Virus genome (UHGV): UHGV-2042139
DNA from: a virus
Direction: 5' to 3' (one strand)
Length of the DNA: 10,143 bases
Made by a program: the position numbers and the translations under genes. The notes beneath the pieces are model-generated. The model was not told the DNA's origin and did no database searches. It saw only the letters and a program-made list of their open reading frames with translations. Positions 1 through 10,143 of the stretch are shown here, in pieces; positions within the stretch are counted from its first letter, which is position 1; the number at the start of each line of letters is the position of its first letter.

Positions 1-711
1 ATGAAAATTAGAAAAGTTGTTTTAACAAAAGCAGAGAAGTATTCTGATGAAATGGGTAATGAGATCCAGTACGAAGGTAGTTGTGACGTCAAACTAATTC
101 AGTTTAGAGGATCTAATAATAAACTTATCATTCATAAAGATGCATCATTAAAATATTTTGAGATATATTTTGACTGCAACAATGGGTATTTTGAAATTGG
201 CCCATGCCATATCGCAAACAAAGGTATACAAGCCCATATAAGAGTGGGTGAGAATTCCTCCATAAAAATAGGCTCTGATTTCACTTGCACTGGTAAAGGT
301 ATGATTTCTGCTGTAGAAAACTCAAGCATAATTATTGGCGATGACTGCATGTTTTCAAGTGGAAATGAAGTTAAAACTGATGACTCCCACCCTATTTTTA
401 GTGTAGTAACAGGTGAACGTATAAATATGCCAAAATCTATTTATATTGGAAGTCATGTCTGGGTTGGCCGCCGAGCGGCAATACTTGGTGGTGCAGAAAT
501 CGAAAGTGGTAGTGTTATTGGCTATGCAGCTGTTGTTAAAGGACACGTCCCAAATAACTCTATTGCAGCAGGAGTTCCAGCAAGAGTAATAAAAAAAGAC
601 ATTGCCTGGGAAAGACCTCATCTCTCCATACATAAACCTTATGTAAAGCCTAATAAGGACTCCATAAAAACCACAAGTGAATATTGGAACCTAACAAAAG
701 AAAAACAATAA
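1..711 (+). CDS. Hexapeptide-repeat (left-handed beta-helix) O-acetyltransferase, maltose/galactoside-acetyltransferase / NeuO-like; likely modifies a surface polysaccharide
   Basis: 236-aa ORF, ATG at 1, TAA at 709-711. Translation carries imperfect hexapeptide repeats and the typical C-terminal block (IYIGSHVWVGRRAAILGGAEIESGSVIGYAAVVKGHVPNNSIAAGVPARVIKK). The start coincides with the window edge, so the RBS and any upstream repeats cannot be seen. Confidence 0.8.
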   Translation: MKIRKVVLTKAEKYSDEMGNEIQYEGSCDVKLIQFRGSNNKLIIHKDASLKYFEIYFDCNNGYFEIGPCHIANKGIQAHIRVGENSSIKIGSDFTCTGKGMISAVENSSIIIGDDCMFSSGNEVKTDDSHPIFSVVTGERINMPKSIYIGSHVWVGRRAAILGGAEIESGSVIGYAAVVKGHVPNNSIAAGVPARVIKKDIAWERPHLSIHKPYVKPNKDSIKTTSEYWNLTKEKQ

Positions 712-745
712 AAACACACCATATATTGAACGACAAGTAAATCAC

Positions 746-790
746 ATGTCACTCCTAGAATGCGATATCTTTAAGGAGTGACATTTATCT
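746..790. terminator. Candidate bidirectional hairpin between the convergent acetyltransferase and tailspike genes
   Basis: Perfect 11-bp inverted repeat ATGTCACTCCT (746-756) / AGGAGTGACAT (774-784) with a 17-nt loop, followed by TTATCT on the + strand and a T-rich stretch on the - strand. The loop is long for a classic intrinsic terminator. Confidence 0.35.
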
Positions 791-866
791 ATAACAAATT
801 ACTAAAACACCCAAAAAACATAGACTTCAATTGGTAATATTGAGACTTAAGGTGTCAGTAAAATAG

Positions 867-3599
867 TTAATTTGCAAGCTTATTTTCCAGTTCTTCAATC
901 CTCTTTATAATATTTTTCTGACGTATACCTAATGCAGCAATCATTAGATACTGTAATTCATCATTTCTGAATGCATAGCGTTCTCCTGCTTCATGCGTAA
1001 TAGTTATAGCCTCACGAACAAGGTTACCTTCATCATCATAAACAGCTGGATCTGTATCTGTATATGCATCCCATCTGTCATAGCAGATCGCTCCGTATTT
1101 AAATGGATCAAGTCCATTCTCTCTGAATATTTCCATTGCCCGTTGCACCGTAAGTCCGGCATGAAGTCTGGCATCAGCTCCCTTATTTTTTACACTATCA
1201 AGCCATTGATAAAAACCAATTTCATCAACAAGAGCTAACCCAACCGCCTGCTCTTTATCGGAAAGAGTTCTGACTTCCGTTTTCTCTGTTGCATCAGATG
1301 TATTTATAGTTGCAGTCCCTGCGTAGACCTGAGAAAAGCGGTTAACGGACCTTCCAAGTGATACCTGGTTATCAGTTGTTGGCCTTAATGTCGTCGTCGC
1401 CCATGTCGATGTAGTATCTTTAGTCGCAGAAAATACTGTTACATTCCCCTGCTTAAGTCTGACGACACCTCCATCTGTAGAGGCAAGTATCAACTCACCA
1501 GCCGCAGATGGACAATCAGCAGCATGGATATCAATATAAGCACCACCCGCAGTATTCCCATCTTTAGAACGGAACTGCATACCTCGAAAGTTTGAGTCGA
1601 ATACTGCTTTCGTACTTACCCATGAATTATTGTCATGTCCGTAATCTGTATCAAACAGGTTAAGGTTATTTCCATAATTCAACTCGAGGGATTTGGTATA
1701 CTCTCCAATGGCTTCGTCAAATATCGCAATAGTAAATGAACCGTGCTCACGGTTAAAGGCGATATCAGTTCCAGCATAATATTGATGCGCGGTTCCGGTA
1801 TACGGATCGGATTCTGCACCATGCACTGGATGGTTGCCAAGAATATCAGACAGGTTTGCTATTCCAAACAGATGCTTATTTCTGCGAGTATAATCACCTG
1901 ATTTATATGTTGCGCCTGAATCCCATTCACCACTTGTCGCTGCAAGCGATGTTTTTAACCAATAAGACCTGTTTGTCGGAAGATTTCCCTTGTTATCACC
2001 AGTAACAATACTTACCCAATTTTTACCACGATGGCTTACAACATCCCCTGCGCTTTTCCATACATCCATAGCACCACAGACAAGTTCATCACCTCTTATT
2101 GCCAGCCCTTCAGGCTCAAAGCTAACCGGAACTCCGATTTTAGAGTCAGAACCATTTAACTGAGTCTCTGTATAAAGTGATGCGGCAAGTGATACAGGAA
2201 ATGAACGTATTAGCGTACCACCCATATCATAAATCTGTACTGTCCTTACGCATCTTGCAGGAACGCCACCCCAAATTGTGTAAATATATCTGCTATCTGA
2301 TGTAATACCCTGAAGTGTTGCACCATACTGACCTTTACCACGGACAAGTGGAACAGGACCATTAATCGGTCTAACTTTCATTGGGTTAGAAGAAGATTCC
2401 ACTTCTTTGCGATCATATACGTATAAAAAGCGGCCAGTCCCAGCGTTTGATGTCGCAATTAATATGACATATCGCCCATCATTAGATACACAAATACTTG
2501 CCCGCTGCGCAAGGTTAATCAGATTATTATCACCCGGCTCACCAAATACTCGGTAATGAGTTATATCTTCAGCAGATGTTGATGCCCCTTTCCATTTTGT
2601 CTTTGAATACCCCTTCCCTCCTAGAGAGGAACCAGTCTCAGCAATTGTTGTTGTAAACAGATATAGTTCACCGTTCTCTATTGTGGCAGAAAGATCTGAA
2701 CCGTGACCAAGAGGCAATGGCTCTGTAAATGTCACAACATAAAGAGTTGAACCATCGCTTGTATAGTGCCACTCACTGATCCTTGTGAGGGTGTCCGTTC
2801 CCCAGTTAGAACCTCCAACCTGTTGAGTGATAAAAACCTTCTCAATACCTTCATGCCTTACACAAGCTATTCCCTGCAATGCATTTTGTGCATTCGCATA
2901 TATAGTTGGCGCATTGATATCATCACCAAAATTCAGGGTCGCAAGTTTTCTTTGTCCAATGGAGAAACTTTGCATCGGCGGATTAACAGAAATGCGAACA
3001 CCATTACTGATTAGAACACCATCACCGGAGAAGCGTGAAATATCTATTTTCGATGCATCAACTATAAACTCACCAGAAGGCACATGAACCAAACCACTAT
3101 TTCCTGCGCTAGATGCGGCGTCAAGAAAAGCCTGTGTTGAATCTCTATTCCCAGAGTCATCCGCCCCCCACCCGCGAACGTCTTTATCATCCCGCCATCG
3201 TGCAATCTGTAATTCAGGGTATTTTTTAGCACCATCAGGATCTTCTAATTGCTGCCGTAACTGATCCGGGTCATACTTCAGCACATTCGGAAAATAGAAC
3301 TGCTGCGTACCATAAGCATCGTACACAGCCATAGAGTGTCCTTTCACAGTAACGAATTTGGCAATCTGTCCGTTATATACAGGATATCCAGCAGCATTGA
3401 TAACGATTGGTTGCGAAACAGGAACGTGAGAACCATCTTCATTCTCTACATAAACCTGAATCTGGTTTTCAGGATTTACAGGGTCAGTGTCAATTTTACC
3501 GATATAAATTTTTCCATTAGCTACGGCTTTAAAAGAACGAGCCATAGTGAAGAGTTGAGAAGGCATCCCAATTACAACATTTGGAGTTATATCAGGCAT
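867..3599 (-). CDS. Phage tailspike protein: P22 gp9-like N-terminal head-binding domain, divergent central receptor-binding/depolymerase body, C-terminal intramolecular-chaperone-like (peptidase S74-like) domain with terminal coiled coil
   Basis: N-terminus [59 protein letters not shown]...VLKYDPDQ matches the P22 tailspike head-binding domain ([43 protein letters not shown]...). C-terminal stretch [34 protein letters not shown]...[11 protein letters not shown]...IEELENKL resembles the autocleaving chaperone domain of endosialidase-type tailspikes, as recalled from memory. Start chosen at the ATG at 3599 (AGGA 8 nt upstream); an alternative ATG lies at 3608, and the ORF-track start at 3752 is an upstream extension with no homology. 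Confidence 0.85.
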
Positions 3600-3916
3600 A
3601 TTAGTCATCCTGTTTGAAAATTTAGATATTGAAGAAAACGGAATGACTGCAGACAAAGATGCAATTGTTTTGAAAAATAATCTTCTATTCACTTTAAAAC
3701 TATGCAACATGAACAAAACAATTATTTTACAACAAGCAAGAATCTTGATCAACAGACATATGCTTTATGCGTTTAATGCGTCACTTAAAAATAACAAGTA
3801 CTACTTTTATTCCTATCGTCCATGATTTTCATTTTCAAATATTATTAAATAACAATTCCTATTTATAATATCTGTCATTTAATCTGCTCCAGATAAAAGG
3901 AATCGCTGCAGCATTG

Positions 3917-3961
3917 CCACAGTGATGCATTATTAATCAAACAAAGAGACCACAGTGGTCT
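3917..3961. promoter_or_regulatory. Candidate operator region: 15-bp perfect palindrome plus an upstream CACAGTG core copy, in the tailspike-mnt intergenic region
   Basis: AGACCACAGTGGTCT at 3947-3961 is a perfect 7+1+7 palindrome about 70 bp upstream of the mnt ATG. A second copy of CCACAGTG lies at 3917-3924, with centres 33 bp apart. Promoter hexamers could not be assigned confidently by eye. Confidence 0.35.
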
Positions 3962-4024
3962 TATTGAGGATGCAACCAGCAGATAATAAGATGCCGATCC
4001 ACTCACAAAAGCGAGGCATCAAGA

Positions 4025-4276
4025 ATGGGAAGAGATGACCCGCAATTTAATCTGCGGCTACCTTACGAATTAAAGGAAAAACTAAAACAGCGAGCCAAAT
4101 CCAATTGCCGCTCTCTTAATTCAGAATTAGTTCAGATAGTGACTGATGCTGTATCAAAGCCATCCAAAATTTCAGGCTATCGAGACGATGCGGAACGAAT
4201 CGCTGATGAGCAGTCCGAACTTGTTAAGAAGATGGTGTTTGATACGCTGAAAGATTTGTACAAAAAACCCACCTGA
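4025..4276 (+). CDS. mnt: Mnt-type ribbon-helix-helix repressor (Arc/MetJ superfamily) with C-terminal tetramerisation coiled coil
   Basis: 83-aa ORF with GAGG 8 nt upstream of the ATG. MGRDDPQFNLRLPYELKEKLKQRAKSNCRSLNSELVQIV...YRDDAERIADEQSELVKKMVFDTLKDLYKKPT aligns along its full length with P22 Mnt as recalled (ARDDPHFNFRMPMEVREKLKFRAEANGRSMNSELLQIV...AERLADEQSELVKKMVFDTLKDLYKKTT). The N-terminal strand reads PQFNLR, as in P22 Arc. Confidence 0.85.
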   Translation: MGRDDPQFNLRLPYELKEKLKQRAKSNCRSLNSELVQIVTDAVSKPSKISGYRDDAERIADEQSELVKKMVFDTLKDLYKKPT

Positions 4277-4291
4277 TGGTGGGTTCCATTT
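4261..4291. terminator. Bidirectional intrinsic terminator shared by the convergent mnt and lipoprotein genes
   Basis: Perfect 8-bp stem AACCCACC (4266-4273) / GGTGGGTT (4278-4285) with loop TGAT. It is flanked by an A-run on the left, giving a U-tract for the minus-strand transcript, and by CCATTTATT on the right. The mnt stop codon TGA sits in the loop. Confidence 0.6.
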
Positions 4292-4292
4292 A

Positions 4293-4712
4293 TTAGTCTT
4301 GCTTTGTGGACGGTATAAGTGATGCATTTGCCTCTTTTGGCTTCAAGGTATACATTCCACCATTAAATGGATCTACAGCAAGCCAACCAATTAACCCACC
4401 AAACACAAGGTTCCCACCAATATACCAACCATTAGCATTGGCTTTGATTGGCAGGGTAACTGGTTCATACCCATCCTTCTCCATAGTGATCTGGTAGCTC
4501 TTTTTGCCAAAATAGCTACCATCTGACTTGGCGAGCGTTACACCTTGTGGGGTCTTACCTTGCGCAACAATCACACCTGACTCATCTTTTACCTTAAAGC
4601 TCGCGCCAGAAGGATTGCTGTTCACTTGCACAAGTTGCGTTTCATCACCAACAATAGTTGCGCACCCAGATAACATGATAACGCCAGCAACGACGCTAAT
4701 AATCCTCTTCAT
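4293..4712 (-). CDS. Lipoprotein with PEGA-like beta domain and C-terminal glycine-zipper segment; function unknown (candidate superinfection-exclusion or envelope protein)
   Basis: Signal peptide with lipobox (MKRIISVVAGVIMLSGC), then a PEGA-like pattern (VQVNSNPSGASFKVKDESGVIVAQGKTPQGVTL...GYEPVTLPIKA) and GGNLVFGGLIGWL. Start taken at the internal ATG at 4712 (lipoprotein signal begins there); the ORF-track start at 4745 would add an acidic 11-residue extension. Ends 7 nt before the terminator hairpin. Confidence 0.7.
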   Translation of the reverse strand: MKRIISVVAGVIMLSGCATIVGDETQLVQVNSNPSGASFKVKDESGVIVAQGKTPQGVTLAKSDGSYFGKKSYQITMEKDGYEPVTLPIKANANGWYIGGNLVFGGLIGWLAVDPFNGGMYTLKPKEANASLIPSTKQD

Positions 4713-4830
4713 ATCAATTTCCATATTTAAAAAAAACGGAAACATCCTAATGACAAATCATTCAAATGTGAAGTAGGCAAAAGATGTTTACTTTTTTCAT
4801 GGTATCCTGCTCAAAACTAAGGAGGTTGGT

Positions 4831-5154
4831 GTGTATACAACAGTTATCGTGATAGCTATCGCACTCATTGTGGTTCAGTACCAACTGGCATCTTTAAAAC
4901 AAAAGATATCTGACCTCAAGACTGAGAACGAAGCACTTAAAAACTCAATAAAAGATGAGAAGAACAAACTATCATTCACTATATCTGATATTGAGCAATC
5001 CATTGAAATTATTGAGAATAATATTAACAGACTAAAAAAAGAAGATATTCATGAAATCAATGACAATATCAAGGATTTGAAATCTTGGCTTAGGAATGTA
5101 GGGCAAATCGCCACATCAACACGAGATAAGCTCAATCCATCCATGGATGATTAA
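4831..5154 (+). CDS. Small membrane-anchored coiled-coil protein (N-terminal transmembrane helix, then heptad-rich domain); function unknown
   Basis: GTG start preceded by a strong SD, AAGGAGGT, at 4819-4826. N-terminal hydrophobic helix TTVIVIAIALIVVQY followed by a Lys/Glu-rich coiled-coil-like sequence. Markedly more AT-rich than its neighbours. Its TAA stop (5152-5154) directly abuts the stop of the convergent ORF (5155-5157). Confidence 0.6.
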   Translation: MYTTVIVIAIALIVVQYQLASLKQKISDLKTENEALKNSIKDEKNKLSFTISDIEQSIEIIENNINRLKKEDIHEINDNIKDLKSWLRNVGQIATSTRDKLNPSMDD

Positions 5155-5910
5155 TTACTCCTGTGCTATTCCGCTTAGCGACGCTACAATGCCAGCCCTC
5201 GCTAAGCGATTGAACTCTTCGTTTCCAACTGCATCACGTATTGCTTTTACGGCGGCTTTATTTGCCATAAATCTGCGTTCCGCCGCCGCTAATGCTTCTT
5301 TACTTCCGCCAGCTCTTACTGCTTTCGTGGCTTCCTGAACTGCTTTCTCTATCGCATATCGACCGCTACGCGTGGTGGCAATTTTAGATACAGCGCCTTT
5401 TAACCCGGCGCCAACTAAAGCACCTGCGGCAGCGCCTGCAATGCCCCCTCCTGCTCCACCAACAATGGCACCTGATGTTGAGTTGGCAATTGCATTTAAC
5501 ACTGTTGATGTGACGTTGGATAAACCGGCATCCAGATCGCGTAGTACATTGGCAGTTCTCCCTGTTCTTTCAATATACTGCTGAGGTTTCACTGCTGCTC
5601 TTGCAAGAGTGCCATATGCATCAGCAATTCTTCCAAGTTCTGAGGAATATCGGCTAATGGCTTTTACATTTTGTGGAGTGAGTATCTCTGCGATATGGTT
5701 AATTCCTGCTGCATCAGCTTTGCCACCACGTACACCATGCGAGATAGCATCTTGCAACATTGATGATATAGCAGGAACACGCTCTGATTCTGGCAGCGCG
5801 CGGATCATAGAATGGAACCCAGCAGGACCATTAAGACCTTTAATAGGATTCGACCCTAAGCGAGATATGCCATTCAAAGGAACTCGCCACAACGCGCTTG
5901 ATGATGCCAT
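5155..5910 (-). CDS. GC-rich Gly/Ala-rich hypothetical protein with glycine-zipper segment; possibly a 3' remnant of a larger virion (ejection-protein-like) gene or an intact membrane-active protein
   Basis: Uninterrupted 251-codon ORF containing GAIVGGAGGGIAGAAAGALVGAGLKGA. No convincing SD before the ATG at 5910. The opposite strand is broken into three same-frame ORFs with low-complexity Pro/Ala translations, consistent with the minus strand being the coding one. GC-rich sequence inflates ORF length, so confidence is moderate. Confidence 0.45.
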   Translation of the reverse strand: MASSSALWRVPLNGISRLGSNPIKGLNGPAGFHSMIRALPESERVPAISSMLQDAISHGVRGGKADAAGINHIAEILTPQNVKAISRYSSELGRIADAYGTLARAAVKPQQYIERTGRTANVLRDLDAGLSNVTSTVLNAIANSTSGAIVGGAGGGIAGAAAGALVGAGLKGAVSKIATTRSGRYAIEKAVQEATKAVRAGGSKEALAAAERRFMANKAAVKAIRDAVGNEEFNRLARAGIVASLSGIAQE

Positions 5911-5959
5911 TCACCAAGCCAAATACGTTTCAGCGATCTGGAAAAAGTTAGCTAAATAA
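5873..5959 (+). pseudogene. Possible 3'-terminal remnant of a DnaQ-like (DEDDh) 3'-5' exonuclease gene
   Basis: Plus-strand translation ends ...FKGTRHNALDDAIHQAKYVSAIWKKLAK, stopping at 5957-5959, 16 nt before the SD/ATG of the next operon gene. HNALDDA resembles the Exo III motif (H-x-A-x-x-D) of DEDDh exonucleases. No motifs I or II upstream. Partly antisense to the first codons of the 5155..5910 ORF. Confidence 0.2.
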
Positions 5960-5975
5960 TCAACAGGAGAAAACC

Positions 5976-6269
5976 ATGCCAGCGCCTCTGTATGGTGCGG
6001 ACGACGCGCGCCGCTGTTCCGGCAATTCCGTATCGGAGGTGCTGGATAAATTCAGAAAAAACTACGACCGGATAATGTCGCTACCGCAGGAAACGAAAGA
6101 GGAAAAGGAATTTCGCCACTGTATATGGCTTGCAGAGAAAGAAGAACGCGAGCGAATTTACCAGACATCAATCCAACCATTCCGCAAAGCCACATATACC
6201 CACTTCCCTGAAATTGACCCGCGCCTGCGTAATTACCGCTCACGTTATGGCGCTATCAGTAATGACTGA
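5976..6269 (+). CDS. Hypothetical protein, first gene of an early-region-type small-gene operon
   Basis: 97-aa ORF, ATG at 5976 with SD AGGAGA 5 nt upstream. No family recognised from the translation. Confidence 0.6.
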
Positions 6270-6279
6270 GGAATTTACC

Positions 6280-6444
6280 ATGAGAGGACTTGCATACAAT
6301 CCCGGCATTCTTCCGGCAGAAATGATTATTCGCCAACGCGTAAAGCCAATGCCATCGAGAGAGGAATTGCTTAAGAGAAATTCTTTTCCATCAGTAAATC
6401 AAAACAAATATCTGAATGCGATGTGGCGGAGTGGGAAGAAATGA
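6280..6444 (+). CDS. Small hypothetical protein (54 aa)
   Basis: ATG at 6280 with SD GAGGA 7 nt upstream, immediately after the stop of the preceding gene. The longer ORF-track version from 6130 overlaps the upstream gene out of frame and is rejected. Confidence 0.5.
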
Positions 6445-6962
6445 AACAAATGTCACTAATTGAGATGGATGGATTTCTGAAAGGTAAATGCATCCCACGA
6501 GATTTAAAGGTTAACGAAACAAACGCTGAATATCTTGTCCGTAAGTTCGGTGAACTTGAATCAAAACTCAACGAGCAGCGTGAGTATTACGAGGGCGTTA
6601 TCTCGGATGGGAGTAAGCGTATTGCTGAACTGGAGAAAAGCGAAGAGCAACTCATCAACGAGCTTGACCATGCTGAGTATGCTTTAGCTGATATGTACTT
6701 TGCAGCAACCGGGGATAGGTCTGAGTGGAGTAACTGTTTCAGTTTTTCAGATGCTGTCGATGCCGTGGTTGACAGAATTGCTGATTTAGAAGCTAAACAG
6801 CCATCGCCAGTAGTGCCGGAAGGACTGGTTAAAGCAGTGCGCTTCTATGAGCAGGTAAAACGTGAGAATCCGCCAGCCGAAACCGGAGCATGGAAAGACG
6901 CTGTTTACTGGGTGCTCAAAGAGGCTTGTCAGGTTGTAAACACTGGCATCAAAGGAGACTGA
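6441..6962 (+). CDS. Hypothetical protein with central coiled-coil region (173 aa)
   Basis: ATG at 6441 overlaps the upstream stop (ATGA at 6441-6444), indicating translational coupling. The ORF-track start at 6423 is a GTG. No family recognised. Confidence 0.6.
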
Positions 6963-6963
6963 T

Positions 6964-7173
6964 ATGGCTATTGCCGCAAGTTACACCATGCATCTCTATT
7001 GTGACTGCCGTCAGTGCACGGAAGGTGTATATCCAGTGCCAGACTTCGGTGAGTATATCGGTACGTCATGGGCTGGCTGTGCAAAAGAGGCGCGCAAGGA
7101 TGGCTGGCGAATAAGCAAAGACAAAACGCGTGCTTTTGCGCCCGGGCATAAAGTTTTGAGGATTAACAAATGA
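6964..7173 (+). CDS. Small Cys-containing hypothetical protein (69 aa), possible metal-binding
   Basis: ATG at 6964, one nucleotide after the upstream stop, with SD GGAG 6 nt upstream. Contains CDCRQC plus a further Cys. Confidence 0.55.
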   Translation: MAIAASYTMHLYCDCRQCTEGVYPVPDFGEYIGTSWAGCAKEARKDGWRISKDKTRAFAPGHKVLRINK

Positions 7174-7904
7174 CCACTATAACCAAAGAGCGACTGCTGA
7201 CAATCAAGCAGTGGCGCGAAACATACGGACCGGGTAGCAACGTTGTACTGCCAGCAGAAGAAGCGGAAGAACTGGCACGGATTGCTCTGGCATCGCTGGA
7301 AGCAAAACCAATAGGTGCATTCCACATTGCAGAACAGCAAGTTGACGGCACAAGTGACTACCTCAAGGATGGAGAATGGCCTATTGATAATGGAATTATT
7401 GAGGTCTACGCCGCTCCCCCCGTTCCAGTAGTACCGGAAGAAAAACCAATGCCTAACGCTCTAAGCATGCTTGAAAGAGAGATCACACAACTGATTGGTG
7501 ATGCGCAGGAAGCCACTGTTACTGGCTATGAGTTAATCGCTGAAGCTTGGCGTTTGATGGATGGACAAGACCCTAAAACCAGCGATTGGCATAGCAAGGC
7601 TTCGAAGTATTTAAATTCCAATATTGTAGAAAAAGTTGATGATGACCGTATTGATGCAATTAAGGCTGTTTTGCGTAGACTGGCTGGCAACTCTCCGGTA
7701 ACTCCGGATGGTTGGATAAGCTGTAGTGAGCGAATGCCAGATGATGGTCAGCACGTAATTATTTTATGTGATGGCGCATTCGTTCTTTATGCGCAATATC
7801 GAGACGGTGAGTTTTTTGATGTTGTCCGCAATGGTGAGGAGTTCTTCGAAACGCAGAGCCGCAATGTAACCCACTGGATGCCGCTACCAGAACCGCCGCT
7901 CTGA
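7170..7904 (+). CDS. Prophage early-region protein with DUF551-like C-terminal domain
   Basis: ATG at 7170 overlaps the upstream stop (ATGA), with SD GAGGA 8 nt upstream. The C-terminus DGWISCSERMPDDGQHVIILCDG...VTHWMPLPEPP matches the DUF551 signature as I recall it. Confidence 0.7.
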   Translation: MTTITKERLLTIKQWRETYGPGSNVVLPAEEAEELARIALASLEAKPIGAFHIAEQQVDGTSDYLKDGEWPIDNGIIEVYAAPPVPVVPEEKPMPNALSMLEREITQLIGDAQEATVTGYELIAEAWRLMDGQDPKTSDWHSKASKYLNSNIVEKVDDDRIDAIKAVLRRLAGNSPVTPDGWISCSERMPDDGQHVIILCDGAFVLYAQYRDGEFFDVVRNGEEFFETQSRNVTHWMPLPEPPL

Positions 7905-7933
7905 TAGCGAATCTTATACATATCTTTTACATC

Positions 7934-7947
7934 AACAATATATTGTT
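7934..7947. promoter_or_regulatory. 14-bp perfect AT-rich palindrome, candidate operator upstream of the zinc-ribbon gene
   Basis: AACAATATATTGTT at 7934-7947, in the 96-bp gap between the DUF551 gene and the zinc-ribbon gene, 53 bp upstream of the ATG at 8001. Confidence 0.3.
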
Positions 7948-8000
7948 AATTTCCAATCAATGTTACGTTGTCATCTCACTCATGCTTTGGAGGTAGTGAT

Positions 8001-8180
8001 ATGTCTTGTCCAAAATGCGGTTCTGGAAATATTGCAAAAGAAAAAACAAGGCGTGGATGGTCTGGAGATTATGTGTGCAGTGATTGCGGATACAACAACT
8101 CTAAAGACGCATTTGGAATGCGCGGTAAAAACGAGTTTAGTAAAAATAATAAAGAACGCGGAAGCAACGAAAAAAGCTAA
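8001..8180 (+). CDS. Small zinc-ribbon protein (CxxC-x19-CxxC), 59 aa
   Basis: ATG at 8001 with SD GGAGG 7 nt upstream. MSCPKCGSGNIAKEKTRRGWSGDYVCSDCGYNN, then a basic tail. The ORF-track start at 7968 is a TTG. Confidence 0.55.
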   Translation: MSCPKCGSGNIAKEKTRRGWSGDYVCSDCGYNNSKDAFGMRGKNEFSKNNKERGSNEKS

Positions 8181-8243
8181 ATTATTTATTCATATATGAA
8201 AACAATGTAACCAATATTCGAATTGAAGAACTGAAAGAACACT

Positions 8244-8268
8244 AAGCCGCCTGATGGCGGTTTTTTAT
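8244..8268 (+). terminator. Rho-independent terminator ending the small-gene operon
   Basis: GC-rich stem AAGCCGCC (8244-8251) / GGCGGTTT (8256-8263) with one G-U pair, loop TGAT, then a run of T residues. Confidence 0.6.
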
Positions 8269-8280
8269 TGGAGACAAGAA

Positions 8281-8625
8281 ATGTCAGATTTGGCTATGAA
8301 GATTTTGAAATGGCAAACGACTGGCGATGTCGGCATCAGTAGCGCAACTCTTGCCTCAATCGCATGTGGACTGAAAAAGAATATCTATGGTCATCACTTC
8401 GGCGCTCCACATGACGCAGCCGATTTCCGACGATGCGTTGCACTTGTTGAGCAGATTCCAGAAATCAGAGATTCATTCGACAAGGTTGCAAAGCGCGTTC
8501 CGGCATTCAAAGGCATCCTCAACGAATGGGATTCTCTCGTTGCTCTGTTGAAGTCTGAAATGAAGATACACGGAAACAAAGCACCAGAGACTTACAGAAG
8601 AATCAGAGAACTACGCAAGGACTAA
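8281..8625 (+). CDS. Hypothetical protein (114 aa)
   Basis: ATG at 8281 with SD GGAGA 6 nt upstream, just downstream of the terminator. The ORF-track start at 8254 lies inside the hairpin and is rejected. No family recognised. Confidence 0.55.
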   Translation: MSDLAMKILKWQTTGDVGISSATLASIACGLKKNIYGHHFGAPHDAADFRRCVALVEQIPEIRDSFDKVAKRVPAFKGILNEWDSLVALLKSEMKIHGNKAPETYRRIRELRKD

Positions 8626-8746
8626 CTATGGAATCATACAGCCTCACACTCGATGAGGCCTGACAGTTTCTCAAGATCGCCAGATCTACCGCAACCGACA
8701 ATAACCGCCACTGAACGGTTTATTTCTTTATGGAGAAACCATACAA

Positions 8747-8977
8747 ATGACAATCAATATTCAGCCGATTCTAATAAACCGCGAGCGTGTTCAGGAGATG
8801 CTTGGTGGTATCTCCAGAACTACTTTTTACCGGAAGCGTAAACAGTGGGAGCAATCAGGGACACCATTCCCTCGGGAAGTGGAAGAAATCCACCCACCGA
8901 AAGGCGGCGCCCTCTTTCGCTACAAGGAAGTTATTCAGTTTTGCAAAGATAAAGGATTGATTTCCGAACACTCTTGA
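8747..8977 (+). CDS. AlpA/excisionase-family helix-turn-helix regulator (prophage regulatory protein)
   Basis: 76-aa translation ...INRERVQEMLGGISRTTFYRKRKQ...GTPFPREV...FRYKEVIQFCKDKGL fits the AlpA/Xis-type pattern (compare E. coli AlpA ...LRLPAVIQKTGMARATIYDWL...FPKK...W...EIDEWL). Its 3' end overlaps the integrase 3' end by 43 nt in convergent orientation. Confidence 0.7.
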   Translation: MTINIQPILINRERVQEMLGGISRTTFYRKRKQWEQSGTPFPREVEEIHPPKGGALFRYKEVIQFCKDKGLISEHS

Positions 8978-10143
8978 ATTTTCTTAGCCCATAATTCTGC
9001 TGCGTCCTGCTGCTCGGGGATGTAGTCATACTGGTCATAAACAGCCAGCATCCCCGTGAGCTTATGCCCGAGAATTTTCTCCGAAACATGAGGTGCTACT
9101 CCAAGTTCAGCCATTTTTGTTTTGCACGTTCTGCGCAGATCGTGCAATGACCAGTGCTCGCCCCCCATAACATCTTCTACCTGTTCTGCAATAGAAATTA
9201 GGGTGCTGGCAGACATTGGGCGATTTTCCTGTAACTTAGCCGGAGGAAATACGATTGACAGATCAGGGTATAGATCAAATACCTGCTGCAAATAATCTGC
9301 TGCGAGTTTTGAAATACCGCGAACAAATCGCTTACGCGTTTTTGAGTTCTCTTTCGGTATAGTCCATTCTCTAGACTTCAGATCAAAATCAGTCTTCTTA
9401 GCCAACCGCAATTCAACACCACGACAACCAGTTAACGCAACAATTCGAATAAACATTTTGTTTTGCCACGACATTTTCGTTTTGTCGATGGCATTCCAGA
9501 ATGCGCCTATCTCAACATCGTTAAGAAAACGTTCGCCATTATTAGGTCTACTGCCGATATCATTAATCTCAAGAAGCATCAGTGCATTTGATGTTATGCG
9601 TTTTCTGCGTAACGCATAGCGGATCACTTGCTTCATCTTCACCAGTACATTTCCCGCCTGTACGGGTGACCCACCTTTTGTTATGCGAATGAATATTTGC
9701 TCCCACTCTACAGGACTCATTTCATCTGCAATCAGCTTACCGTAATTGTCGGTGATGTGAAGTTTCAGCATCCGCTTCCAGTATTCGTACTTCACCATCT
9801 CTTTTACTGAAGGAGTATCAAACCACTCGTCAACTAGGGTACTGATGCTTGGGGAACTTGATGCAATATCTTTGGCTTTCTTCCTTTGCATGGCTGGGTC
9901 TTTACCCTTCTCCAACCACCCTTTACACTCTTCCAATGCATCGCGAGCTTCCTTAAGCGACATCTTCCCGTACGTTCCGAGCTTTAACCTGGCGGGTTTT
10001 CCATTGAAACGATAGCGGTATTGAAAGGTGATAAGTCCCTTCGGGCTGATCCTGACAGAAAGTCCGCCTCCGTCAGCTATCTCCTCAGGTCCCTCATATG
10101 CTTTTCCGGATATACGTCGCAGCTTTGTATCGTTGAGTGCCAT
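8935..10143 (-). CDS. int: Tyrosine site-specific integrase, P4-like family, with N-terminal arm-binding (DUF4102-type) domain
   Basis: 402-aa ORF. N-terminus LNDTKLRRISGKAYEGPEEIADGGGLSVRISPKGLITFQYRYRFNGKPARLKLGTY...SLKEARDA is typical of P4-type integrases. C-terminal catalytic region contains HDLRRT...LGH...AVYDQY. The start codon is the final triplet of the window, so the upstream att site and any tRNA are outside it. Confidence 0.9.
   Translation of the reverse strand: MALNDTKLRRISGKAYEGPEEIADGGGLSVRISPKGLITFQYRYRFNGKPARLKLGTYGKMSLKEARDALEECKGWLEKGKDPAMQRKKAKDIASSSPSISTLVDEWFDTPSVKEMVKYEYWKRMLKLHITDNYGKLIADEMSPVEWEQIFIRITKGGSPVQAGNVLVKMKQVIRYALRRKRITSNALMLLEINDIGSRPNNGERFLNDVEIGAFWNAIDKTKMSWQNKMFIRIVALTGCRGVELRLAKKTDFDLKSREWTIPKENSKTRKRFVRGISKLAADYLQQVFDLYPDLSIVFPPAKLQENRPMSASTLISIAEQVEDVMGGEHWSLHDLRRTCKTKMAELGVAPHVSEKILGHKLTGMLAVYDQYDYIPEQQDAAELWAKKIQECSEINPLSLQN

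Follow-up and report, generated by a model that had tools for sequence, protein, structure and literature searches.

Does the glycine-rich open reading frame (ORF) of 251 codons on the minus strand of the virus genome UHGV-2042139 encode a novel membrane-active protein, or is it what a deletion has left of a larger gene? The question is posed by positions 5155–5975 of a 10,143-nucleotide (nt) stretch of this genome (the whole stretch is hereafter called the window), where the 5′ end of the ORF lies antisense to a short frame resembling the end of an exonuclease gene. Our analyses favour the second option: with a probability of about 95%, the region is a deletion scar in a defective P22-like prophage situated between thrS and espL1/yniD in Escherichia coli, and the two gene fragments that meet in it, one from a gp16-family DNA ejection gene and the other from an early-operon exonuclease gene, are both orphaned. 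The features described below are not a chance pattern, because both strands are nearly identical to annotated phage genes. The coordinates are collected in table 1.

The ORF is the 3′ part of a gp16-family gene

Residues 24–251 of the ORF product (minus strand, 5155–5910 in the ORF list) are identical to residues 492–719 of a 719-amino-acid (aa) gp16-family protein from the prophage of EC24 (NZ_CP182191). At the DNA level, the window is 100.000% identical to EC24 over positions 1–5842, after which EC24 continues as an intact gp16-family gene of 2160 nt; the two sequences are again 99.97% identical over window positions 7235–10143. When positions 4700–6400 were compared with phage genomes by megablast, the left part aligned to epsilon34 (98.9%), CUS-3 (98.3%) and SEN22, with the alignments ending at 5842 and covering, leftwards, a gene annotated as ‘DNA transfer/ejection protein’ (gene 13 of epsilon34) together with its neighbours. 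The ORF product matches the profile phrog_770 (‘DNA transfer protein’) over positions 468–666 of 668 (E=8.6e-49), the full EC24 protein spanning positions 2–666, and Pfam family PF26808 (Phage_P22_gp16) is on record for it. Our own Pfam search with the ORF gave only a sub-threshold match to P22_gp7, and searches of NCBIfam and of solved structures for gp16 returned nothing useful.

The ORF thus shares with the P22 gp16 family, represented by the gp16 of CUS-3 (719 aa), gp13 of epsilon34 (708 aa) and the gp16 of HK620, a C-terminal portion of 228 residues (98–99% DNA identity to epsilon34 and CUS-3), a Gly/Ala-rich segment and a downstream neighbour met stop to stop. It differs from the family in lacking the N-terminal 491 residues, gp20, gp7 and the late promoter, and in carrying 23 foreign residues at its N-terminus. 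Its profile match is confined to the C-terminal part instead of extending over the 600–720 aa of a complete family member, and this part, including the Gly-rich segment, is 100% identical to EC24 and 98.9% identical in DNA to epsilon34 gene 13. Intact gp16 genes are the last of a gp7–gp20–gp16 cluster. Here, the late operon is missing altogether, gp20 and gp7 included, and what lies upstream of the fragment is oppositely oriented, namely abc2 and the remains of the exonuclease gene; on the downstream side, the native neighbour has been kept. All homologues found in an intact context are 703–722 aa long, and the ORF is a gene fragment and not a gp16 family member capable of incorporation into a virion.

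The initial annotation had pointed to a glycine-zipper-like segment, which is indeed there: the ORF product has seven GxxxG motifs, and its residues 151–185 include 11 glycines and nine alanines. The segment is, however, native to gp16 and does not mark a new effector. Native gp16 is a packaged virion component that, after its ejection, completes with gp20 a channel for DNA across the cytoplasmic membrane (PMC10461980; bioRxiv 10.64898/2026.09.03.749273); putative C-terminal transmembrane helices have been noted for the group that includes the 719-aa gp16 of CUS-3 (PMC8954989). Without gp20, gp16 neither forms an open channel nor kills cells (bioRxiv 10.64898/2026.09.03.749273), and the glycine zipper is therefore a feature of an ejection protein rather than evidence for a pore-forming effector.

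The gene abutting the ORF stop to stop encodes an hkcB-like coiled-coil protein, as had been noticed initially, and this convergent layout is native: it occurs in epsilon34 (where the neighbour is gp14) and in the E. coli prophages of EC24, F374 and UTI89. The exact hkcB-like protein is present in 1979 blocks of the collection searched, and in eight of the ten contexts listed it stands beside a full-length gp16 gene (703–719 aa); the other two show a truncation associated with an insertion sequence (IS) 110 nt further into the gp16 gene and a frameshift, respectively. The suggestion that the fragment occupies the gene 16 position upstream of sieA and mnt was right about the gene 16 locus and wrong about sieA, in whose stead the locus has hkcB-like and lipoprotein genes.

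The opposite strand carries the tail of an exonuclease gene

The plus-strand frame that runs across the first codons of the ORF ends in IGFDPKRDMPFKGTRHNALDDAIHQAKYVSAIWKKLAK (its C-terminal end can also be written RHNALDDAIHQAKYVSAIWKKLAK), with the stop codon at 5957–5959, 16 nt before the ATG of abc2 (5976). The initial annotation had recognized in it the C-terminal motif of a DEDDh exonuclease, and the comparison with related genomes agrees. Residues 79–111 of the frame match positions 145–177 of the 177 positions of Pfam family PF16473 (Rv2179c-like 3′-5′ exoribonuclease; E=1.7e-9), and its last 38 residues are identical to residues 145–182 of the 182-aa exonuclease of MS 16-3 (NZ_CP146667), a protein that starts with MNHLMVDLET and covers PF16473 positions 1–177 (E=6.4e-73). 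Window positions 5841–6300 are 100% identical to MS 16-3 and E4 (NZ_CP104516), where the gene is annotated as a 3′-5′ exonuclease. In these related genomes the similarity to exonucleases continues upstream, whereas in the window it stops at 5841.

Compared with the Rv2179c-like exonucleases of lambdoid and P22-like early-left operons (e.g. gp30 of mEp235, WP_001016192.1), the window has kept the last 38 residues, the spacer and abc2; residues 1–144, with the Exo I motif (DLET) and the rest of the domain preceding Exo III, are deleted. The spacer in front of abc2 follows an intact exonuclease gene in mEp235, MS 16-3 and E4. A complete DEDDh domain would extend from the Exo I DxE to Exo III, and the sole catalytic motif left in the remnant is the H-x4-D of Exo III (HNALDD). 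Because residues 1–144, including Exo I, are gone, the tail cannot be catalytic and, judging from its sequence, retains no exonuclease catalytic domain.

Homology switches at two shared nucleotides

Mapped against the related prophages, the breakpoint falls at 5841/5842. BLAST boundaries are at 5842 on the gp16 side and at 5841 on the exonuclease side, from where the rightward megablast alignments (mEp235, mEpX2 and others, approx. 97.6%) cover the genes annotated as ‘exonuclease’ and ‘Abc2’. A three-way alignment of the window with the gp16 parent and the exonuclease parent places the switch at CCTTTA/ATAGG, the shared TA being seen with the closest exonuclease alleles, those of E4 and MS 16-3. 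The two gene remnants meet head to head, so to speak, with transcription diverging from the joint. The breakpoint in gp16 does not coincide with a mosaic (allele) boundary, the divergence being uniform (approx. 2%) over nt 1–1980 of the gene in 12 loci, and there is no hairpin or palindrome at it (no inverted repeat; fold z-score −0.46).

Nothing in the gp16 homologues corresponds to the first 23 residues of the ORF product, the native reading across this position being ...VKSLQSSSA-KGLNG; these residues are specific to the TA junction. Homologues of the 251-aa product as full-length stand-alone proteins with conserved N-termini were not found, all homologues being far longer. The homology switch and the intact comparators thus bear out the initial proposal of an internal deletion by which the 3′ tail of an exonuclease gene became joined to the 3′ part of gene 16 and the phage core was lost, and speak against the alternative of an intact glycine-zipper protein.

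Table 1. Features of the window and their coordinates.
Feature	Position	Strand	Remarks
Retained right arm, thrS side	1–4745		100% identical to EC24
Hexapeptide acyltransferase	1–711	+	annotated in EC24; right arm
Tailspike, P22 head-binding domain	867–3599	−	annotated in EC24; right arm
mnt	4025–4276	+	annotated in EC24; right arm
Lipoprotein	4293–4712	−	annotated in EC24; right arm
hkcB-like coiled-coil gene	4831–5154	+	phrog_5962, E=1.4e-58
Region under study	5155–5975	both	two opposed gene remnants
gp16 3′ remnant	5155–5842	−	codons 492–719 and stop, 688 nt; P22-gp16/CUS-3-type DNA transfer (ejection) protein
Deletion junction	5841–5842		TA common to both parents (A only with the mEp235 allele)
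Exonuclease 3′ remnant	5841–5959	+	last 38 codons and stop; 182-aa Rv2179c-like DEDDh 3′-5′ exonuclease, early-left operon
Accidental in-frame extension	5843–5910	−	first 23 ORF codons; they read the exonuclease remnant antisense, as far as the first ATG that follows a stop
Native exonuclease–abc2 spacer	5960–5975	+	with the abc2 Shine–Dalgarno sequence AGGAG; identical in mEp235, MS 16-3 and E4
abc2 (anti-RecBCD protein 2)	5976–6269	+	Pfam PF11043, E=2.5e-62, full length; phrog_656
Retained left arm	6280–10143		99.97% EC24 from 7235; 99.9% MS 16-3 from 7680
DUF2737 gene	6280–6444	+	Pfam/PHROGs; left arm
ead/Ea22-like and DUF551 genes	downstream of DUF2737 gene		Pfam/PHROGs; left arm
Excisionase-like gene	8747–8977	+	Pfam/PHROGs; left arm
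P4-type integrase (int)	8935–10143	−	Pfam/PHROGs; left arm

Intact and decayed relatives at the same chromosomal site

A contig of the Logan collection with the same sequence (ERR589844_1347, 23.5 kb) runs past the acyltransferase gene into thrS-infC-rpmI-rplT-pheS, which places the element at the thrS/espL1-yniD site of E. coli, its position in finished genomes as well. MS 16-3 and E4 carry apparently intact prophages of approx. 40 kb at this very site, with the gene order int, xis, ..., abc2, 549-nt 3′-5′ exonuclease, ssb, erf, immunity, replication, nin, Q, lysis, terminase, portal, scaffold, coat, gp4, gp10, needle, gp14, gp7, gp20, gp16, ..., mnt, arc, ant, tailspike, acyltransferase and thrS. 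The alignments of the window with both (98.8% with MS 16-3 over 5841–6822 and 99.0% with E4 over 5841–7192) begin inside the exonuclease gene, 118–119 nt from its stop. Estimated from coordinates, with the gp16 endpoint placed by its distance from the stop codon (the gp16 alleles of MS 16-3 and E4 differ from that of the window), the interval missing from the window amounts to about 28.4–28.6 kb.

Three further genomes show other decay states at the site, and internal deletion is therefore the usual fate of this prophage. The remnant in EC24 (13.6 kb) has the joints gp20′/needle′, needle′/erf and exonuclease nt 91/DUF551, that in TUM10008 (12.7 kb) the joints gp16′/coat, portal/terL and terL/exonuclease nt 89 as well as an IS1 in int, and that in GMF065 (4.7 kb) has been reduced to tailspike′/ISEc31/int′; the window (10.1 kb) adds the joint of gp16 codon 492 with exonuclease codon 144/145. 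These remnants resemble the window in their site, in their arms (for EC24, 100% and 99.97% identity), in joints with 0–4 nt of microhomology, and in keeping both prophage ends, one with int and the other with tailspike and acyltransferase; they differ from it in the joint itself, which occurs in 0 of 5,426 complete E. coli genomes. The acyltransferase gene and most of the tailspike gene beside thrS are retained in five of the five states, intact prophages included, which suggests that the end genes are kept either by selection or by position.

EC24 preserves the full gp16 gene, gp20 and needle fragments, erf, ssb, an endonuclease-like ORF and exonuclease nt 1–91, and the window preserves abc2 and ead sequences lost in EC24. 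As each retains parts missing from the other, neither is ancestral to the other. The window differs from its closest relatives by single bases only (6245 T/C in abc2 versus the Logan contig and 9229 C/A in int versus EC24), indicating that the remnants diverged very recently.

How the scar may have formed

With the homology of both fragments, the breakpoint, the chromosomal site and the intact comparators directly observed, we propose that illegitimate recombination with a TA overlap would have joined gp16 codon 492 to exonuclease codon 144/145. Such a mechanism fits well, because the 2-nt joint resembles the 0–4 nt found at all other junctions of the sister remnants. On the early side, the rest of the exonuclease gene, ssb, erf, kil, the immunity region, the replication genes, nin, Q and the lysis genes would have been lost; on the late side, the terminase, portal, scaffold and coat genes, gp4/gp10/needle, gp7, gp20 and the first 491 codons of gp16, the total loss, measured on the intact relatives, being approx. 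28.5 kb. This may have happened in a single step of approx. 28.5 kb or through an EC24-like intermediate with a last step of approx. 5.2 kb. The two routes involve the same total number of events and give no basis for a choice between them, the number of steps being something we infer.

As the fragments point away from the joint, each would have lost its promoter along with its 5′ part (the late promoter in the case of gp16 and PL in the case of the exonuclease gene). The 251-codon ORF would then be the orphaned C-terminal third of gp16, whose frame stays open for 23 more codons into the antisense of the exonuclease gene.

The surroundings of the ORF start are consistent with this proposal. 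The ATG is preceded by 30 nt with the sequence CAGATCGCTGAAACGTATTTGGCTTGGTGA, ending in TTTGGCTTGGTGA, and the sole purine-rich run, GGTGA, touches the ATG with zero spacing; there is therefore no usable Shine–Dalgarno sequence, just as the initial annotation had stated. A promoter scan of 4700–6500 found no sigma-70-like site upstream of the ORF on the minus strand, the single promoter-like site in the scanned region being at 4772–4744 (shuffled sequences give an expectation of 3.6), and a terminator-like hairpin lies upstream of the ORF on its strand (6081–6064). Given the missing promoter and Shine–Dalgarno sequence, the upstream hairpin and the loss of the N-terminal two-thirds of the protein, the gp16 fragment is most likely silent, and both fragments are most likely non-functional pseudogene pieces. 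A further claim, that the block is richer in G+C than its surroundings, applies to its left side only: the gp16 remnant has 48.7% G+C, compared with 33.6% in the hkcB-like gene and 50.3% in abc2 to its right.

Rarity of the junction and apparently recurrent breakpoints

Several observations weigh against the interpretation of the region as a deletion scar that arose by random breakage and is inert. The junction is absent from all 5,426 complete E. coli genomes scanned with a 901-nt spanning query (at least 80% coverage), and the exact junction is likewise absent from collections of genome, metagenome and viral contigs; a 20-mer junction match in a metagenome-assembled genome of an archaeon was discounted, being at about the chance level for 596 Gb. 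The exact 251-aa product is on record in a 42-kb JGI/IMG contig and in Logan, where the contig mentioned above has the same junction with one mismatch (at 6245) in 6588 nt and stops near window position 6588, so the junction is known from two assemblies that are not necessarily independent at the level of the sample. That the fragments are non-functional and unexpressed is, moreover, a view that we infer from sequence features. Finally, another protein appears to share the gp16 breakpoint, a re-use that random illegitimate deletion does not predict.

The protein in question (P0015 from Logan, 243 aa) begins with MTREGESYWLLVWVDKGLNG and consists of a 15-residue N-terminus, MTREGESYWLLVWVD, followed by gp16. 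The N-terminus is what the 3′-terminal part of the endonuclease-like ORF present in EC24 and E4 (EC24 positions 26262–26218) yields when translated antisense. At the protein level, which is the only level at which the fusion is documented, its gp16 part begins at K492 of KGLNGPAGF, exactly as in the window (EC24 position 21550; window 5841–5842), i.e. within 1–3 nt of the gp16 endpoint of the window and with a different partner, keeping the same 228 residues. A query reconstructed for this junction found it in no complete E. coli genome. Yet another gp16 fusion protein (P0014) was encountered as well.

A second coincidence concerns the exonuclease gene: EC24 keeps nt 1–91 of it fused to the DUF551 gene (EC24 26378–26379), and TUM10008 keeps nt 89–549 fused to a terL fragment (TUM10008 10881–10883), so that two independent remnants, from different prophage variants, are broken at matching positions of the gene and retain opposite parts of it. 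Were breakage uniform along a 40-kb element with approx. 16–18 endpoints, two such coincidences would, by a rough estimate, be unlikely. Among the complete-genome matches listed, neither the gp16 breakpoint nor exonuclease nt ~90 was a point of truncation. Breakage at preferred sites, mediated by the adjacent endonuclease-like protein of the phrog_2340 family or by excision of a mobile element, is possible. Restriction sites, Chi, gyrase consensus sequences, CRISPR protospacer-adjacent motifs and IS target duplications were considered as causes of the re-use; none fitted convincingly, and they amount to speculation.

The endonuclease-like ORF, unannotated and 156 codons long, separates ssb from the exonuclease gene in EC24 (25801–26270) and E4 (8734–9230); MS 16-3 does not have it. 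PHROGs assigns it to phrog_2340 (‘endonuclease’, E=2.4e-47), and no Pfam family matches. An HNH label given to it by eye was dropped for want of a Pfam match, and we call it endonuclease-like only; it looks like a mobile endonuclease cassette.

Alternative explanations

One may ask whether the gp16 fragment has been exapted, i.e. whether it is expressed by read-through from int or from a weak promoter and acts as a toxin or as a membrane-associated decoy against the ejection channel of incoming P22-like phages. It spans the C-terminal region in which SieA-escape mutations of P22 gp16, concerning the inner-membrane step, have been mapped (PMC10461980), and gp16 is able to act in trans, diffusing to the cytoplasmic membrane (bioRxiv 10.64898/2026.09.03.749273). 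The frame has stayed open and differs from that of EC24 by no substitution at all, int lies upstream on the same strand, and the junction of P0015 retains the identical 228 residues; if the fragment served as an expressed superinfection-exclusion decoy, this last match would signify a preferred or selected truncation point, a scenario we regard as very improbable. The missing Shine–Dalgarno sequence and promoter-like site and the hairpin at 6081–6064 speak against expression, and the zero divergence from EC24 attests to a very recent deletion rather than to purifying selection. Furthermore, the fragment would be synthesized in the cytoplasm and would not, like native gp16, arrive from a virion, and gp16 lacking gp20 neither opens a channel nor kills (bioRxiv 10.64898/2026.09.03.749273). 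Considering also the rarity of the arrangement in complete genomes, exaptation in either form is most unlikely, and nothing supports a decoy role of the fragment.

Even less probable is an artefact of assembly, in which a chimeric contig would combine two prophage regions from one genome or metagenome. The absence of the junction from complete genomes and three large contig collections would be expected of an artefact, E. coli does carry several lambdoid prophages sharing abc2/ead modules, which break assemblies, and the Logan contig indeed ends at approx. 6588. However, misassembly in a k-mer graph requires tens of shared bases. The parents share just 2 nt at the joint, by which such a misjoin is excluded, and the identical junction occurs in two assemblies (42 kb and 23.5 kb) one base apart. 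The flanks, moreover, represent one prophage at one chromosomal site, where finished genomes hold comparable remnants with other junctions. We take the junction to be real but rare.

The least probable option, a complete gene standing on its own and encoding a novel membrane-active or pore-forming protein of the glycine-zipper type, to which the long open frame and the GxxxG/AxxxG repeats in a Gly/Ala-rich hydrophobic stretch lend a superficial resemblance, is refuted by the comparison with EC24: residues 24–251 form the last third of a virion protein of 719 aa, whose homologues in intact contexts are all of similar length, the N-terminal 23 residues are antisense exonuclease, the motif sits inside a phage ejection protein, no glycine-zipper or toxin family of Pfam matches at E≤0.1 (the PADLOC defence library was not searched), and transcription and translation signals of its own are missing.

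The rest of the defective prophage

The deletion scar is part of a 10,143-nt window that is itself a defective P22-like (Lederbergvirus-type) prophage. Int and xis mark one end and tailspike and acyltransferase, beside thrS, the other, the breakpoints fall inside the gp16 and exonuclease genes, and intact relatives exist at the same site. Neither the ORF list nor Pfam or PHROGs searches of the window revealed any replication, lysis or head genes, and the first intact gene among the leftovers of the early-left operon is abc2.

Some details of the two arms may be mentioned. The excisionase-like and integrase genes are convergent and share 43 nt at their 3′ ends, and the start codon of the integrase gene is exactly the end of the window. 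The tailspike region (867–3752) combines a P22 head-binding N-terminus with a weak Peptidase_S74 (intramolecular chaperone) match at the C-terminus; its frame extends to a TTG at 3752 (961 aa), the RefSeq version having 910 aa from 3599. The genes arc and ant are missing between mnt and tailspike (window 3600–4024) in the window, EC24 and TUM10008 and are present in MS 16-3, E4 and epsilon34, and window positions 3926–4177 have no match in MS 16-3. The absence of arc and ant reflects natural variation of immI or else a further event, a small deletion or replacement.

Implications

The scar is an ordinary feature of an already understood kind, a prophage pseudogene junction. For annotation, this means that the label ‘hypothetical membrane protein’ does not suit the 251-aa ORF, which should be treated as a gp16 pseudogene fragment, and that a pseudogene tail is the proper name for the exonuclease motif. 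The locus adds one state to a well-resolved decay series at the thrS site of E. coli (approx. 40, 13.6, 12.7, 10.1 and 4.7 kb), which could be used for studying how a prophage is whittled down with its tailspike and acyltransferase end retained. The only wider interest lies in the apparent re-use of two breakpoints by independent junctions, which, if confirmed, would point to site-preferred breakage in prophage decay.

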